A stretch of DNA of 55,989 nucleotides from Eubacteriales bacterium (GTDB lineage Bacteria; Bacillota; Clostridia; Oscillospirales; Oscillospiraceae). Positions 22,984 through 35,213 of the stretch are shown piece by piece. Position 1 is the stretch's first letter; every line of letters starts with the position of its first letter. The notes below the pieces were generated by a model. That model was given only the letters and a program-made list of their open reading frames with translations. It did no database searches and was not told the DNA's origin. The stretch spans positions 1,926 to 57,914 of the forward strand of contig JAUNNC010000003.1 of NCBI GenBank assembly GCA_030531585.1. The letters are read 5' to 3'. Made by a program: the position numbers and the translations under genes.

Positions 22984-23600
22984 CTTTTCCCTTGAGTAAA
23001 AGGTGCCCGCAGGGCAGATGAGGTGTCGCCGCCTCTTGCTCCCGTCCTCCCCCCCTGCACGTCATTGCGGGGCAGTGCGTCCCCCCGCCGCCACCCCAGT
23101 CCTTTCGAGCCTTCCCCTTGAGGGGAAGGTGCCCCGAAGGGGCGGATGAGGTGTCGCCGCCCCCCTTGCTCCCAGCCTGCCCGCTTGCACGTCATTGCGA
23201 ACCAGCGGCCCAGGCCGGTTTCTCTTGCCGCAAAAGGCTCTCCGTCATTGCGAGGAGCGAAGCGACGTGGCAATCCGCCTGCCTTTTGCGGCAATTCACC
23301 TTCTGACCGAAGTCACTGGTGTGGCAACCCGTTTTTTCTTTTACCGGTTTGCAGGAGGTGACCTGCGTATTGCGCCCCCGTCTGCCTTCCCCTTGAGGGG
23401 AAGGTGCCCGCAGGGCGGATGAGGTGTCGTTGCCTCTTGCTCCCAGCCTGCCCCCTTGCGCGTCATTGCGAACCAGTGCGCACACTGGTGCTTGCGCCCG
23501 CCCCCGTCTGCCTTCCCCTTGAGGGGAAGGTGCCCCGAAGGGGCGGATGAGGTGTCGCTGCCCCCTTGCTCCCCGCCTGCCCCCTTGCGCGTCATTGCGA
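22984..23600 (+). repeat. Four same-orientation copies of an ~87-bp hairpin-led repeat unit (family 1), interleaved with GTCATTGCGA...GGCAATCC modules
   Basis: Each unit starts with the palindrome CCTTCCCC-TTGA-GGGGAAGG and continues GTGCCC(C)G.AGGGGCGGATGAGGTGTCG...CTTGCTCCC..CCTGCCC.CTTGC.CGTCATTGCGA. Copies are at about 22984-23070 (degenerate), 23110-23200, 23385-23471 and 23511-23600. A fifth, inverted copy is at about 35077-35161. Confidence 0.85.
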
Positions 23601-24108
23601 GGCAGTGCGCACACTGCCGTGGCAATCCGCTCTCGCCTGCCGGTATGCAGACGATACCCTGCGCAATGCGCCCCCCATCTTCTTTTCGTTTTGCCGAAAA
23701 GAAGATGGTCCGCGCCCAGGCCAGAAGAAAAGGGCGCTTGCACGCGGGTTTCCCGCCGGCAAGCGTTGAGCCGGTCCCCACGGATATCTTGGCTTATTCT
23801 CAAAACCGGGTGCAGTCGTGGAATAGTTTGTCGCCTCTGTTTCCGCGCGGAGCCGCTTCGCTTGGCGCTGCACGGTGCAGGCGGTGAGGTTTTTGTACTG
23901 TCTTCCCGCCGCTCCCCGGGGAATCCAACGGGGGCCCGCGGGCCCCCTTGGCCGTTTCAATTAGGGAGGGTCAAGGGAGGGGAAGAAAACGGAATCTTCC
24001 CCTCCCTTGCGGCGTTTCTTTTGTCACTTTTCTTTGGTCCGAACAAAGAAAAGTGAATCACGCAAGTCATTCCCTGCATCCGCGACACGGAAAACGGATT
24101 TCCATGCC
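23459..24108 (+). repeat. Left copy (IR-L) of a ~650-bp mosaic inverted repeat bracketing the sugar cassette
   Basis: Aligns end to end with the reverse complement of 34561-35213. This includes about 120 consecutive identical bases by my reading (23943-24064 versus the complement of 34605-34726). It is built from at least 6 hairpin modules. Confidence 0.85.
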
Positions 24109-24130
24109 AGTCTGTGGATAGCTCGCCACG

Positions 24131-25003
24131 CTACAGTACATACAGCACCCCGTCGCGCTTTTCCTCCTCCGCCGCGGTCCCGGGCCGGAGGCGGGCATAT
24201 TCGGCGGGGTTCATGCCGACGCTCGCGCGGAAGACGCGCGCGAAGTAGTTGGCGTTGGTGAAGCCGCAGGCGTCGGAGACGAACTGTACGCTGTGCCCGC
24301 CCTGCCGCAGCAGGAGCCGCGCATTCTCGATGCGTACCTGATTGAGGTATTTCCCCGGCGTGATGCCCATATATTTGCAAAAGCAGCGCGTCAGATATTC
24401 CTGGCTGACCTCCAGGCGGTCGGCCAGCTCCCCGATCCCGTCGAGGAAGGCGTACTCGCGCCGCAGGATGCCGAGCGCCGCCTCCACCACGAGCGGCAGC
24501 CGGTTCCCGTCCGCGGGTCCGGCGCTCTCCGTGCCGTGCAGATCCATCAAAAGCTGGAAGGCCGCGCCGGAGGCCTCCTGCGCGGACAGCGCGTGTCTGC
24601 CGTGCGCCTCGGTGCGGTGCAGCATCCGTTCGAGGGCGAGGCCCCCGCGTTCAAAAAACAGCCCGGTCCGGCGGCAGTCGGACAGCACCGTGTCGGCCGC
24701 GCTGCCGCAGAGCGTCACGCAGCGCACCGTGCAGGCGCTCGCGGCCGGCAGCGACAGCTCCTCCCCTCCGGGGAAGGCCGCGGCCTGCGGCGCCTCCATC
24801 GTCCAGGCCCGGTCCGCCCAGGCTACCCGCAGGCGTCCCTCCGCCGGACCGAGGATGCGCCAGCGCCCGGCCTCGGCGGGCAGTGTGCGCACGCTCCCCG
24901 CCTCGAGGGAAAAGACAGACGCCTCGCAAACGCCCAGAAGCCCCGAGAGAAAATCTCCCGGAGCTTCCAGTACGGTATTCAGCTCTGTGGGCCGGCGATC
25001 CAT
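24131..25003 (-). CDS. AraC-family transcriptional regulator
   Basis: About 290 aa. The C-terminal double HTH reads IGELADRLEVSQEYLTRCFCKYMGITPGKYLNQVRIENARLLL...VSDACGFTNANYFARVFRASVGMNPAEY. The ATG overlaps the upstream TGA (TGATG). Confidence 0.9.
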   Translation of the reverse strand: MDRRPTELNTVLEAPGDFLSGLLGVCEASVFSLEAGSVRTLPAEAGRWRILGPAEGRLRVAWADRAWTMEAPQAAAFPGGEELSLPAASACTVRCVTLCGSAADTVLSDCRRTGLFFERGGLALERMLHRTEAHGRHALSAQEASGAAFQLLMDLHGTESAGPADGNRLPLVVEAALGILRREYAFLDGIGELADRLEVSQEYLTRCFCKYMGITPGKYLNQVRIENARLLLRQGGHSVQFVSDACGFTNANYFARVFRASVGMNPAEYARLRPGTAAEEEKRDGVLYVL

Positions 25004-32823: not shown

Positions 32824-32857
32824 ACAGAAAACGGTCTGTTGACAGGAGGGACCCCTT

Positions 32858-34534
32858 ATGCAGCACAAATGGTGGCACGGTAAAACCGCATATCAGATTT
32901 ATCCGAAGAGCTTCTGCGACTCGAACGGCGACGGGATCGGCGACCTGCGGGGCGTGATCTCGAAGCTAGACTACCTGCGGGAGCTCGGCGTGGAGATCGT
33001 CTGGCTCTCCCCCGTCTACCCCTCGCCCATGGCCGATCAGGGCTACGACATCTCCGACTACTACAATATCGATCCGCGCTTCGGCACCATGGACGACATG
33101 GACGAGCTGATCGCAAAGGCGCGCGAGCGCGGGATCTCCATCGTGATGGATCTGGTCGTCAACCACTGCTCGGACGAGCACGATTGGTTCCGCAGGGCCT
33201 GCGAGGACCCGGACGGGCCTTACGGGCAGTTCTTCTACATCCGGGATTGGCATGAGGGCGAGCCCCTCCCCTGCAACTGGCGCAGCTACTTCGGCGGCCC
33301 CTGCTGGGAAGTGCTGCCCGGCCACCCGGACAAGATCTACTTCCACGCCTTCCACAAGAAGCAGCCCGACCTCAACTGGGAAAACCCCGCGCTGCGCCGG
33401 GAAATCTACAAGATGATCAACTGGTGGCTGGACCGGGGACTCGGCGGCTTTCGCATCGACGCGATCATCAACATCAAGAAGCTGCTCCCCTTCCGCGACT
33501 TCCCCGCCGACCGGGACGACGGTCTGTGCGCTATCCAGCGGATGCTGGCCGAGACCGAGGGCGTGAACGTCTTCCTGCGCGAGATGGCCGACGAGACCTT
33601 CTGCCTCTACGACGCCTTCTCCGTGGGCGAGGTCTTCAATGAGAAGACCGAGGACCTGCCGCTGATCATCGGGGACGACGGCTACTTCTCCAGCATGTTC
33701 GACTTCTCGGAGCACCTGCTCGGTCTGGACCGGCGCGGCTGGCATCTTTCGCATCTGCCGACGGCGGAGGAATACAAGCAGGCCGCCTTCGCCGCCCAGG
33801 CGCGCGTCGCCGACATCGGCTTTCTCTCCAACATCATCGAAAACCACGATGAGCCGCGCGGCGTCTCCCACTATCCGCCGCAGGGCGAGCGCTCCGACGC
33901 GGCCAAGAAGCTGCTCGGCGGACTCAACTTCCTGCTGCGCGGCCTGCCCTTCCTCTATCAGGGGCAGGAGCTCGGCATGGAGAACCGCACGGGCTGGACG
34001 CTCGGGGAGTTTGACGACATCAACACCCTCGACCAGTACGAGGTGGCCCTGCGCGCGGGCTTCACGCCGGAGCAGGCGCTGCGGGCGGTCTCGCTCTACT
34101 CGCGCGACAACGCCCGCACGCCCTTCCAGTGGGACGCCACTCCCGGCGCGGGCTTCACGACCGGCACGCCCTGGCTGCCGCTCAACCCGAATTACCGGGA
34201 GCTCAACCTCGCCGCCCAGCGCGGGCGCGAGGGCTCGGTCTACGAGTTCTACCGCAGCCTGATCGCCCTGCGAAAAAGCGGGGAATACGGCGAGACCCTG
34301 GTCTACGGCGAGACCGTGCCGTGGCTCCCGGAGCAGCGCAACCTGATGGCCTATCTGCGCCGGGGCGAGAAGACGGTCCTCGTGGCGGGGAATTTCCAGG
34401 GCGAGCCGCAGGACATGCGCCTGCCCGCGCCGCTGAAAAAGCTGCTGCTGAACAATCTGGAGACGCTGGACGCGGAGAGCGGGACGCTGCATCTGGCCCC
34501 GTGGCAGCTCATCGTGGCCGAGGCGGAGGGGTGA
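32858..34534 (+). CDS. GH13 alpha-glucosidase / oligo-1,6-glucosidase family enzyme
   Basis: 558 aa. Has WWHGKTAYQIYPKSFCDSNGDGIGDLRG, DLVVNHCSDEH, GGFRIDAI and ENHDEPRG (GH13 conserved regions I, II and IV). Confidence 0.95.
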   Translation: MQHKWWHGKTAYQIYPKSFCDSNGDGIGDLRGVISKLDYLRELGVEIVWLSPVYPSPMADQGYDISDYYNIDPRFGTMDDMDELIAKARERGISIVMDLVVNHCSDEHDWFRRACEDPDGPYGQFFYIRDWHEGEPLPCNWRSYFGGPCWEVLPGHPDKIYFHAFHKKQPDLNWENPALRREIYKMINWWLDRGLGGFRIDAIINIKKLLPFRDFPADRDDGLCAIQRMLAETEGVNVFLREMADETFCLYDAFSVGEVFNEKTEDLPLIIGDDGYFSSMFDFSEHLLGLDRRGWHLSHLPTAEEYKQAAFAAQARVADIGFLSNIIENHDEPRGVSHYPPQGERSDAAKKLLGGLNFLLRGLPFLYQGQELGMENRTGWTLGEFDDINTLDQYEVALRAGFTPEQALRAVSLYSRDNARTPFQWDATPGAGFTTGTPWLPLNPNYRELNLAAQRGREGSVYEFYRSLIALRKSGEYGETLVYGETVPWLPEQRNLMAYLRRGEKTVLVAGNFQGEPQDMRLPAPLKKLLLNNLETLDAESGTLHLAPWQLIVAEAEG

Positions 34535-34560
34535 GTACGAAGCGGAGCAGGACCGCGAAA

Positions 34561-35213
34561 GGCATTTGCGGCAATCCGTTTTCCGTGTCACGGATGCAAG
34601 ATTTGACCTGCGTGATTCACTTTTCTTTGTTCGGACCAAAGAAAAGTGACAAAAGAAACGCCGCAAGGGAGGGGAAGATTCCGTTTTCTTCCCCTCCCTT
34701 GACCCTCCCTAATTGAAACGGCCAAGGGGGTCTGCGGACCCCCGTTGGATTCCCCGGGGAGCGATGGGAAGATTGTGCACAAAACGTACCGCATGCACCA
34801 CGCAGCGCCAAGCGAAGCGTCTCCGCGCGGAAACAGAGGCGACAGCCTGTTCCACGATTGCACCCGGTTTTGAGAAAAGCCCGGACCTCCGCGGGGATCG
34901 GCTCAAAGCTTATCGGCGGGAAACCCGCGTGGAAGCGCCCTTTTCTTTCTTCCACCGGGCGCGGCGCTATCTTTCTTTTCGGGCAAGCACCGAAAAGAAA
35001 GATAGGGGGGCGCATTACGCAGCCTATCGCTTGCAAACCGGCACGAGAAAACGGATTGCCACGTCGCTTCGCTCCTCGCAATGACGCGCAGGGGGAAAGC
35101 CGGGCGCAAGAGGCGGCGACACCTCATCCGCCCTGCGGGCATCTTCCCCTCAAGGGGAAGGCAGACGGGGGCGGGAGCAAAAGGCAGTGTGCGCATTCCC
35201 AGCAATGACTGCA
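34561..35213 (-). repeat. Right copy (IR-R) of the ~650-bp mosaic inverted repeat
   Basis: Its reverse complement aligns with 23459-24108 (see IR-L). The inner end starts 26 nt after the GH13 stop. Confidence 0.85.

Follow-up and report, generated by a model that had tools for sequence, protein, structure and literature searches.

Chromosomal inversions can arise by homologous recombination between inverted repeats such as rRNA operons, IS copies and REP clusters. REPs and BIMEs are short, imperfect extragenic palindromes located mostly 3' of genes and between convergent or co-directional ones, and they are found in high copy number, in mosaic arrays of variable composition whose presence or absence differs from strain to strain (Di Nocera et al. 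2013, PMC3733652; Nunvar et al. 2010, PMC2817692; Ton-Hoang et al. 2012, PMC3333891). The CGTC REPs have been reported from five phyla, and Firmicutes are not among them. Here we analysed a stretch of 55,989 nucleotides (the window) from an uncultured rumen bacterium, in which a 10.4-kb alpha-glucoside gene cluster is enclosed by long inverted repeats. The reading that we favour, to which we give a probability of roughly 70%, is that repeat arrays grew beside a native gene cluster, that they recombine and convert each other, and that they have inverted the 10.4-kb segment at least once.

An initial annotation of the window had described imperfect inverted repeats of about 650 bp, and these were borne out by self-blastn and by global alignment. 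The left arm (23459-24108, forward strand) and the reverse complement of the right arm (34561-35213, reverse strand) are collinear end to end with about 85% identity. Self-blastn of the window paired 23477-24103 with 35195-34570 (85.5% identity, 636 columns, E=0), while the global alignment of the two arms (650 versus 653 nt) contained 568 identical positions, 67 mismatches and 33 gap columns among 668 columns. In the inner 307 nt the complementarity of the arms reaches 91%. The coordinates also confirmed how closely the arms approach the genes that they enclose: 22 nt separate the left arm from the stop codon of araC (TAG, 24131-24133), and 26 nt separate the right arm from that of GH13 (TGA, 34532-34534). 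The right arm is located between the GH13 stop and the terminator of IreB. The left arm is the inner part of a larger array found 3' of araC (22986-24106), with additional directly repeated modules; its outer portion (22986-23458, forward strand) contains direct copies of A/B modules in units of about 126-130 nt, belonging to families D1-D3, and one CGTC-tagged module.

The arms are mosaics of short dispersed hairpin modules that are highly multi-copy in rumen metagenomes. Module C, which is CGTC-tagged and REP-like (CGTC-ATTGCGAGG...GGCAAT-CCG), occurs at 23243-23277 on the forward strand, again at 23590-23628, and in the right arm at 35052-35086 on the reverse strand, where it is 100% identical to the first copy. 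A degenerate single copy is also found inside the cassette (28270-28315, reverse strand), in the gap towards which the Bmp-domain and DUF624 genes converge; the relative L007 has a module at this site, and in L011 the intergenic space measures only about 20 nt. In rumen metagenome contigs the depth of module C is about 100-250 times that of its flanks, with many different flanking contexts, and sub-segments of the arms range from about 1 to more than 100 times flank depth, also in many contexts. The largest module carries three hairpins. In the left arm it spans 23930-24056 (forward strand; H1 23930-23947, H2 23972-24009, H3 24024-24056), with the conserved motif GTTTCAATTAGGG at 23954-23966, and in the right arm 34617-34743 (reverse strand; H3 34617-34649, H2 34664-34701, motif 34707-34719, H1 34726-34743), where H1 differs from that of the left arm by a compensatory change from C-G to T-A. 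Eleven copies were collected, two from the window arms and nine from five loci (L001-L005) in four rumen Oscillospiraceae MAGs, which hold several copies each, at contig ends. When ten of the eleven were aligned, 91.4% of the cells were paired and 14 pairs showed compensatory changes, a result that none of 500 shuffles equalled; an Rfam search with this module gave no match. In all copies examined the H3 end faces the stop codon of the adjacent gene.

The segment between the arms encodes an AraC-family regulator (24131-25006, reverse), an MsmK/UgpC-type sugar ABC ATPase (25003-26187, reverse), a 670-aa protein with a Bmp/PnrA-like domain at residues 323-482 and an N-terminal half without domain assignment (26256-28268, forward), a DUF624/MusI-family membrane protein with two ABC permeases and a solute-binding protein (28348-32598, reverse), and a GH13 alpha-glucosidase or oligo-1,6-glucosidase-like enzyme (32858-34534, forward). 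This gene content is as previously described, except that Pfam, even with the cutoff relaxed to E<=1, gave no sign of the "ParB" part attributed to the 670-aa protein; the position of its gene is kept in relatives L006-L009. The genes had been taken together as one functional set, marked off by the repeats as an accessory module. The locus continues past the left arm, with a beta-phosphoglucomutase (18937-19575, forward; TIGR01990 match above cutoff) and a GH65 phosphorylase-family enzyme (19591-21861, forward) that are linked to the cassette in L006, L008, L177 and L007, and also in the contigs of opposite orientation that reach GH65 (L159, L161, L165 and L175). All relatives examined, with protein identities as low as 62%, share the gene order of the cassette, which persists where one or both arrays are missing (L006, L166, L167, L176 and L177), which counts against an acquired module. 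Codon usage of the cassette correlates with that of the flanks (r=0.956) as the flanks do with each other (r=0.945), and its GC content is likewise native. In agreement with the initial annotation, no transposase is present in the window among the ORFs scanned, and no invertase gene was found either. The cassette is thus a native, conserved alpha-glucoside uptake cluster, part of a larger catabolic locus, and its acquisition or movement as a unit is unsupported, because the cluster is conserved, its codon usage is native and the locus extends beyond the left arm.

What varies in presence among relatives is the arrays and not the cassette. L166 lacks the left array (22955-24106, with the boundary between window positions 22954 and 24107) and L167 lacks the right arm (boundary between 34574 and 35213); in both, one module remains and the boundaries coincide with array edges. 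At the junction in L175 there is no inner arm, positions 23069-23304 of the outer left array are missing from a strain in run X1, the sister species L176 has modules solely downstream of GH13, and the distant relative L007 is almost array-free. The arrays are therefore dynamic.

Orientation was scored on contigs of 12 relatives, whose GH13 genes have 95.5-96.6% nucleotide identity to that of the window, using as flank markers the zinc-ribbon protein gene znrib on the left (22053-22823, reverse) and IreB on the right (35267-35509, reverse; own terminator hairpin 35220-35257; followed by pheT and pheS). The contigs come from eleven different assemblies, including MEGAHIT k141 contigs, and their junctions are without N gaps. 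Half of them (6/12) are oriented as the window (A) and half (6/12) are opposite (B). Orientation A is read from one contig in L166 (GH65-znrib-araC...GH13-arm-IreB-pheT) and from the GH13-IreB junction in L167, L168, L169, L170 and L173; orientation B is read from IreB-array-araC in L159, L160 and L161 and from GH13-array-znrib...GH65 in L159, L161, L165 and L175. Seen from the markers, znrib adjoins araC in the window, L166, L008 and L009 and GH13 in L159, L161, L165 and L175, while IreB adjoins GH13 in the window, L166-L170, L173 and L176 and araC in L159-L161. In the B contigs the inner arm parts (320 nt) remain with the cassette and the outer flanks are swapped; the GH13-side arm of L159 is still 98.2% identical to that of clade A. 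The state of the window, read from one assembly of its lineage, is ancestral, since the outgroups carry orientation A, namely L176 (GH13-IreB-pheT) and L177, L006, L008 and L009 (GH65/znrib beside araC).

The occurrence of both orientations in sister lineages indicates that the repeats serve as sites of recombination rather than being the termini of a mobile cassette gained from elsewhere. The initial annotation had offered RecA-dependent inversion as its other possibility, and this part has held up in that both orientations exist, the breakpoints are placed inside the arrays on both sides, and recA is present (8913-10028), but there is no sign of frequent switching. The six contigs of each clade all have the same orientation, which agrees with the GH13 gene tree and correlates with a 6.4-kb flank indel; being fixed per clade, it points to one old event and gives no evidence for active or frequent switching, and supports the view that the inversion is an evolutionary rarity. 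The crossover falls within the arrays, whose central stretches have diverged too far among lineages to place it more closely. It should be noted that in L007 GH65 lies on the solute-binding protein side of the cluster, co-directional with that operon, so rearrangement of the locus does not strictly require arrays.

A second trace of exchange between the arms is a tract of 122 identical nucleotides, the longest such run between them (23943-24064, forward strand, equal to the reverse complement of 34609-34730). A run of about 120 bases had been noticed before with the same left coordinates, and its right coordinates (34605-34726) were off by 4. Random reordering of the match and mismatch columns never produced a run of this length in 20000 permutations, which gave 86 at most. 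The states common to both window arms within the tract (AAAACGG; GGTCCGAA) are mostly missing from the orthologous arms of other lineages, and outside the tract each window arm resembles its ortholog. These sequence patterns suggest that gene conversion from one arm to the other produced the tract.

We suggest the following history. Both arms would be copies of a single composite, about 630 bp long, put together from short dispersed palindromic repeat families (the CGTC-tagged REP-like module, two further types of small hairpin and the covarying three-hairpin module of about 130 nt). Growth of the arrays would be confined to this lineage and to two intergenic spaces, those 3' of araC and of GH13, the end genes that face outward. 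Since the two copies are inversely oriented, they could serve as substrates of homologous recombination. Non-reciprocal exchange would maintain partial identity and leave the 122-nt tract; reciprocal exchange, presumably RecA-dependent, would invert the 10.4-kb segment, and has probably done so on at least one occasion in the recent past of the species group, when one sister clade was flipped and exchanged its flanks while the inner arm parts stayed attached to araC and GH13. The flip was probably close to neutral, and it could become fixed because the segment is bounded on either side by the 3' end of a gene that faces outward, and all internal promoters move along with it.

Other histories were considered. 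The inverted repeats might be the product of an inversion, with staggered breaks in a single array 3' of GH13 duplicating it at both breakpoints, and the window a later re-inversion. L166, in clade A, has the GH13-side arm only and a single module at the znrib-araC junction, L176 carries modules downstream of GH13 only, and each genome with both arms is either inverted or the window, as this would predict. However, paralogous arms within a genome are 89.5-91.9% identical, differing by 8-10%, at least as much as orthologous arms between lineages (91.6-98.2% identity), which points to a duplication older than the split of A, B and the window, and hence than the inversion; furthermore, the window would require two inversions, and the "empty" site of L166 ends exactly at array edges and retains one module, which deletion fits equally. 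We consider this history unlikely. No better placed is the proposal that the arms are independent insertions of a mobile, MITE-like composite, mobilised in trans and targeting gene 3' ends, with the clade-B inversion unrelated; it is just as doubtful that the inverted arrangement merely mirrors the outward orientation of araC and GH13. The constant facing of H3 towards stop codons, the dispersed, multi-copy modules at MAG contig ends and the sharp boundaries with which arrays appear and disappear would suit insertion, but neither the composite nor its 307-nt inner part was found a third time in the 56-kb window or the flanks of relatives, terminal inverted repeats and target duplications were not recognised in the composite, the scanned ORFs include no transposase, and clade-B breakpoints inside arrays on both sides would be a coincidence. 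That the orientation difference is a repeat-caused assembly artefact, in the window or in the contigs of relatives, is very improbable, even if many of these contigs stop at arrays and Logan unitigs break within them, because several independent gap-free assemblies from different samples back each orientation, orientation tracks the GH13 gene tree, the left arm is missing in L166 (A) and the inner arm is missing from the junction of L175 (B), so that neither offers a long inverted repeat to mislead the assembler, and the window arms, 85% identical, share at most 122 identical bases, below read length or a k=141 word.

Recombination between native arrays, our preferred reading, can finally be compared with known systems. 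Like a composite transposon, with its cassette between two inverted IS copies, the locus holds a functional gene set between long inverted repeats, but the arms encode no transposase, the composition of the cassette is native, and all relatives, even where one or both arms are missing, have it at the same chromosomal location and with the same linkage to GH65 and beta-phosphoglucomutase. As in invertons and shufflons, the segment between inverted repeats occurs in two orientations; no invertase gene was found, however, the repeats are imperfect and hundreds of bases long, and what is inverted is whole operons with their own promoters, in an orientation fixed per clade, and not a promoter or gene fragment. 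The modular small repeats of Gram-positive cocci and MITE-like elements (pneumococcal BOX, ERIC and Correia elements; PMC3184786) share modular sub-units, variable copy number, a strong potential to form hairpins and an intergenic position near gene ends, whereas they show no sequence similarity to the window modules, whose composite is without recognised terminal inverted repeats or target duplications. With the CGTC REPs module C has in common the CGTC tag, the A-T-initial stem (ATTGC...GCAAT) and the CC tail, but its outer stem has 5 bp and a nested second hairpin, against a stem of 8-9 bp and a loop of 4-5 nt. The window modules are unrelated in sequence to any described REP family, have no known RAYT or other transposase, stand head-to-tail in the left array and not as head-to-head dimers, and form arrays of 0.65-1.15 kb with at least four module types, including the 130-nt three-hairpin module; like REPs and BIMEs they are short, intergenic, multi-copy palindromes in mosaic arrays that vary in presence and absence. 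Compared with repeat-mediated chromosomal inversions, the repeats are non-coding palindrome mosaics only 85% identical overall and what they enclose is a short segment (10.4 kb) that matches a single catabolic gene cluster, but the locus shares with them a tract of perfect identity, RecA, both orientations, breakpoints in the repeats and signs of gene conversion.

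The two arms of the inverted repeat (left 23459-24108, right 34561-35213) match over their whole length and not just in short modules, as the initial annotation had proposed. In a self-blastn of the window, 23477-24103 aligned with 35195-34570 at 85.5% identity over 636 columns, and a global alignment of the arms (650 against 653 nt) was collinear end to end, with 568 identical, 67 mismatched and 33 gapped columns; a repeat finder gave 91% complementarity for the inner 307 nt. The longest identical run covers 122 nt, 23943-24064 being the reverse complement of 34609-34730. A run of about 120 nt had been described, and its length stands, but its right-hand coordinates were 4 nt off. 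When match and mismatch columns were permuted 20000 times, the longest run was 86 and 122 was never reached. The inner ends lie 22 nt from the araC stop (TAG) and 26 nt from the GH13 stop (TGA), the same values as first noted. Between them are genes for an AraC-type regulator, an MsmK/UgpC-type ATPase, a 670-aa Bmp-domain protein, a DUF624/MusI-family protein, two permeases, a solute-binding protein (SBP) and a GH13 alpha-glucosidase; this is the gene set originally listed, except that no ParB domain was detected in the Bmp-domain protein.

Several kinds of short hairpin-forming module make up the arms, which are mosaics and not one homogeneous sequence. In the left intergenic region the array is 1.15 kb long (22986-24106) and, outside the arm proper, carries units of ~126-130 nt as direct repeats (repeat families D1-D3); according to the repeat finder, A, B and C modules recur in differing order. 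Module C, of the form CGTC-ATTGCGAGG-(hairpin)-CGTGGCAAT-CCG, lies at 23243-23277, 23590-23628 and 35052-35086, with a degenerate copy at 28270-28315 between the convergent Bmp-domain and DUF624 genes. It measures 33-38 nt and has an outer stem ATTGC/GCAAT round an inner hairpin (GCGAAGC or CAGTG-CGCA-CACTG), complete units reading CGTC-ATTGC...GCAAT-CCG. The sequence CGTCATTGCG has six exact occurrences in the 56-kb window, always within arrays, and the module sites are also occupied in four contigs of relatives (L006, L007, L167 and L176). A degenerate CGTC-type remnant (…CAGTGTGCGC…TTCGCAATGAC) was seen in the pheS upstream region (39560-39593), where, as upstream of cysS, neither a T-box nor any other Rfam family was detected. 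Scanned for promoters and terminators, the arms gave nothing above shuffled expectation, the only convincing terminator being that of IreB.

The abundance of the modules was evaluated by placing contigs of four rumen runs on the left array. Depth was ~800-2300 on the CGTC module, ~150-1350 on other small modules, 10-400 on the inner part and ~4-12 on the unique flanks, so that the CGTC module reaches 100-250 times the flanks, summed over the whole rumen community. The loose ends of array contigs run into many different contexts, some of them AT-rich. From the unequal depths and the many flanking contexts it follows that, in the rumen community, each module is dispersed as a repeat of its own. 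The Logan contigs of runs X1, X2, X6 and X9 and of the metatranscriptome X7 have unitigs that break inside the arrays, so that they were informative on copy-number profiles but not on linkage or strand; three raw-read runs (X21-X23) contained small modules from other genomes only, the window organism being absent from them. Literature searches by module sequence or translated motif returned only unrelated primer matches, and searches on REPs in Oscillospiraceae and on REPIN/RAYT in Firmicutes found nothing. A RAYT (Y1 transposase) partner goes with GTAG REPs, and CGTC REPs are said to have none. CGTC REPs have been listed for five phyla, among which Firmicutes do not appear (PMC3733652). With no Rfam match, no literature match by sequence and a phylum outside that list, the modules appear undescribed.

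The 122-nt identical core belongs to a three-hairpin module of ~130 nt, made of H1 (23930-23947), the motif GTTTCAATTAGGG (23954-23966), H2 (23972-24009) and H3 (24024-24056). In a search of representative genomes covering 185,579 species, just five contigs contained an exact 22-mer of it, and all five come from rumen Oscillospiraceae MAGs, one labelled Candidatus Limivicinus. These loci hold nine copies, some as inverted pairs 330-430 nt apart and some at contig ends, and one MAG has at least three. In a covariation test on ten aligned copies, pairing was present in 91.4% of cells and 14 pairs had changed on both sides; 0 of 500 shuffles were as high, and slid controls were all much lower. 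H3 faces the stop codon of the neighbouring gene in every copy with a readable neighbour. G-U pairs in the extended H2 stem are confined to one of the strands, which folds better than the other by 4-8 kcal/mol, a weak hint that this strand is transcribed; given the one-sided G-U pairs, an RNA function with transcription towards the neighbouring gene is possible. Searched against Rfam, region 22800-35400 gave nothing at E<=1, and in the window as a whole no family reached its gathering score. A scan of viral contigs with the 14-mer CGTTTCAATTAGGG returned 73 matches, none extending to the module by blastn, and these were attributed to chance.

Substitutions between the arms keep hairpins, not codons, and H1 differs between left and right arm by a compensatory C-G to T-A change. 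A protein-coding reading of the arms was rejected because the frame is lost between them upstream of the last 95 codons and because the changes in the stems are compensatory. "Hypothetical proteins" of 154-205 aa are called inside arrays both in the window (23547-24056 on the plus strand, 34617-35081 on the minus strand) and in relatives (L159 11960-12577, L168 5795-6325, L169 4202-4732, L173 2763-3293); these calls are artefacts, produced by repeats that are GC-rich and poor in stops.

In three of the MAG loci (L001 5434-5912, L002 7050-7611, L005 5380-5890), two subtypes of the three-hairpin module are paired in inverted orientation, enclosing ~300 nt with a strong GC hairpin (CAGGGGCGGCGACTGCCGCCCCTG). 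This ~550-bp composite recurs in several MAGs and at contig ends, and it may be a MITE, a small RNA gene or a terminator pair. We consider it improbable that the three-hairpin and CGTC-type modules together form an undescribed family of structured elements, mobile or transcribed, in rumen Oscillospiraceae, homing to gene 3' ends, building arrays and repeatedly making inverted-repeat pairs that flip or reshuffle carbohydrate-utilisation loci. If true, this would be a mechanism of repeat-driven genome plasticity in a major uncultured group of gut bacteria.

Concerning the cassette between the arms, it had been suggested that it was an acquired, accessory module exactly bracketed by the repeats. 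The window organism is an uncultured rumen Oscillospiraceae, the runs containing its DNA being rumen metagenomes, and the window carries core chromosome genes (recA, cysS, der/engA, plsY, pheS/pheT, ireB). The cassette is like its flanks in GC, GC3 and codon frequencies (codon r=0.956, versus 0.945 between the flanks). The locus extends past the left arm, with a beta-phosphoglucomutase (bPGM; TIGR01990, 240 bits against a cutoff of 189) outside it and a GH65 phosphorylase-family gene also immediately beyond; these two enzymes are standard partners of an alpha-glucoside transporter. In relatives with 62-64% identity in the Bmp-domain protein, the gene order from araC to SBP is unchanged, and in L006 it continues to GH13. 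GH65/bPGM lie beside araC in L006, are separated from it only by a zinc-ribbon gene (znrib) in L008, and are co-directional with the SBP operon in L007; in L009 only the order from araC to the Bmp-domain gene is kept, and znrib adjoins araC. No arrays occur in these distant relatives, which carry one small module at most. The bracketing is thus not that of a functional unit, since bPGM and GH65 are linked to the locus in relatives, and horizontal acquisition was rejected on codon usage, GC content and synteny conserved even without arrays; the data do not support a mobile or accessory cassette. No empty site without the cassette was found among the relatives examined, and a tRNA scan found none, giving no tRNA-linked island.

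Other features of the locus were also recorded. Identity along the cassette is uneven in two relatives: in L165 (6-3905, against window 24240-28184) the araC-to-Bmp half is just 68-78% identical, its DUF624-to-GH13 half is 87% and its GH13 protein 97% identical, and the SBP gene of L166 is 85% identical inside an otherwise 92-94% region. Such mosaic identity suggests recombination imports within the locus. An uninterrupted minus-strand ORF at 2528-5212 encodes 894 aa with EF-G/TetM-like GTPase domains (residues 34-625) and, C-terminally, a YacP-type NYN nuclease domain (residues 733-885), and is either an unusual fusion or two same-frame genes with no stop between them. The left arm is preceded, 13 kb upstream, by recA (8913-10028, plus strand), whose neighbours are genes for a PrmC-like methyltransferase and a MiaB-like radical-SAM protein. 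A minimum of GC skew near 24-25 kb reflects gene orientation, with C-rich coding strands on both sides, and was not accepted as an origin signal. The exact sequences of the window GH13 and zinc-ribbon proteins have no database record.

Relatives were collected by a GH13 protein search, which gave ~40 clusters at 96-98% identity, all in ENA or Logan assemblies. Two orientations of the cassette were found relative to its flanks, znrib on the left and IreB on the right. The window-like orientation A is seen on one contig in L166 (GH65-znrib-araC...GH13-arm-IreB-pheT), and GH13 is followed by IreB-pheT in L167, L168, L169, L170 and L173. The opposite orientation B is seen as IreB-array-araC in L159, L160 and L161 and as GH13-array-znrib...GH65 in L159, L161, L165 and L175. 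A GH13 nucleotide tree has three groups, namely clade A, clade B and the window as a separate lineage; GH13 identity is 98.4-100% within A or B, 96.5-97.5% between them and 95.5-96.6% between the window and both. Orientation is uniform inside each clade, and the window lineage is represented by the window itself (n=1), in orientation A. The outgroups (L176, L177, L006, L008 and L009) share the A arrangement, and B is therefore derived. These data support the inversion first proposed for this segment, as an evolutionary event. The outgroup contig L177 (ERZ4902965 contig_74905) has most genes split (GH65 in four pieces, SBP in three), which is typical of uncorrected long-read errors, so its gene order is usable and its ORFs are not. 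Clade B also has a ~6.4-kb block between znrib and GH65 (L159 13450-19630; also L161, L165 and L175), with a 68-aa ORF, an ECF-type sigma-70 factor, a 288-aa protein and a Peptidase_C39 ABC exporter with further ABC components. This block is missing in the window (21861-22053) and in L166, where the genes are ~70-190 bp apart, and the indel co-segregates with the inverted orientation.

It is the arrays, and not the cassette, that show presence/absence polymorphism, as the following differences demonstrate. Window 22955-24106 is represented in L166, within GH65-znrib-araC, by only 67 bp with a single CGTC module, and the right arm (34575-35212) is replaced in L167 by 233 bp with a single module. 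The L175 junction keeps the outer modules and is missing the inner arm, the GH13-IreB spacer of the sister species L176 (84% GH13 identity) consists of one CGTC module and one other module, and a strain in run X1 skips 23069-23304 (a 234-nt skip). Among relatives, the array between a given gene pair can be as short as ~70 bp, with one module, or as long as 1.15 kb, and the boundaries of presence and absence coincide with the arm edges. In one further, short contig (L174 2288-3396) the GH13-side arm runs to the equivalent of window position 35054, in a CGTC module, beyond which comes an MscL gene in place of IreB or znrib; either the array has been rearranged a third time here or the contig is chimeric.

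The history of the arms bears on how the inversion arose. Arms within one genome are 89.5-91.9% identical and orthologous arms of different lineages 91.6-98.2%; paralogous arms are thus no closer than orthologous ones, so the duplication is older than the lineage split and hence older than the inversion. This age disfavours the explanation that the repeats are a by-product of an inversion by staggered breaks. In clade B the inner 320 nt of each arm remain with araC and GH13, the flank-proximal parts being with IreB and znrib, and the GH13-side arms of L159 and of clade A share 98.2% identity. The exchange points between A and B lie inside the arrays; the exact crossover position is ambiguous when B junctions are compared with the window arms, because of the repeated modules and of differences in the middle of the arrays. 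A mobile composite inserted independently at both ends, with no part in the inversion, is likewise disfavoured, since both breakpoints fall in arrays and no further copies were seen in the window or in the flanks of the relatives. In L007 the locus is rearranged without arrays. That the difference in orientation is an assembly artefact is disfavoured by the many independent contigs, which come from eleven different assemblies, MEGAHIT k141 contigs included, with no N gaps at the junctions, and which in L166 and L175 have no long inverted repeat that could mislead an assembler.

Recombination between the arms would also account for the identical core. Outside the 122-nt tract, the GH13-side arm of the window resembles that of clade A and its araC-side arm resembles that of clade B; inside it, both window arms are identical, with the states AAAACGG and GGTCCGAA, missing from most orthologs. 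Such a tract is the footprint that non-reciprocal recombination between the arms would be expected to leave. We propose, as the account that the data support best, that the conserved alpha-glucoside locus of this species group gained REP/BIME-like arrays downstream of both outward-facing end genes, that a ~630-bp composite came to be present, inverted, at both ends, that its two copies have exchanged sequence since, and that a reciprocal exchange flipped the 10.4-kb segment in one sister clade. The flip was probably near neutral, because the segment has gene 3' ends on both sides and carries its promoters along.

There is ample precedent for REP/BIME-type arrays and for inversion between inverted repeats, and the polymorphism series described here (no array, one, both, inverted) is a clean natural example, in which an inverted pair of arrays has probably let an entire sugar-uptake cluster flip. 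It provides direct evidence from uncultured rumen bacteria that structural change is concentrated at arrays of small palindromic repeats. Such arrays also break short-read assemblies, yield spurious "hypothetical protein" calls of 170-205 aa and can give a native locus the appearance of a mobile cassette. Candidates for a family description are the CGTC-tagged REP-like unit, in a phylum without an earlier report, and the covarying three-hairpin unit without an Rfam match.

Compared with known systems, the locus differs from a composite transposon, which has flanking IS with transposase and whose cassette moves or leaves an empty site, whereas the window arms are non-coding and linkage of the cassette to GH65/bPGM is kept throughout, even in relatives at 62% identity. 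No transposase had been noticed initially, and indeed no Pfam match to one was found among the scanned ORFs of the 56-kb window; the same holds for recombinases, with the exception of recA. A site-specific invertible element has short, precise repeats and a nearby invertase or recombinase, unlike the ~650-bp imperfect repeats found here with no recombinase but recA. CGTC REPs are defined by an unpaired end tetranucleotide, CGTC (or GTAG), a stem starting with A-T and a CC(A) tail (PMC3733652). Module C is a short (20-40 nt) imperfect palindrome, as REPs are, and has the unpaired CGTC tag, the A-T-starting stem and the short CC(A) tail (PMC3733652). It is also extragenic, all copies being downstream of araC, GH13 or the Bmp-domain gene; REPs in general favour gene-downstream positions and spacers between convergent or co-directional genes, and typically number about 100 or more in a genome. 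However, families CGTC-1 to CGTC-4 have a stem of 8-9 bp and a loop of 4-5 nt, while the outer stem of module C has 5 bp and the 18-23 nt between its halves form a second, nested hairpin, unlike CGTC REPs. The arrays resemble BIMEs, being mosaics of several repeat types in combinations that vary between strains. Finally, inversion by homologous recombination needs a tract of perfect identity and recA, here 122 nt and the gene at 8913-10028, and is recognised by the occurrence of both orientations with exchange points in the repeats, as we observed between clades A and B.
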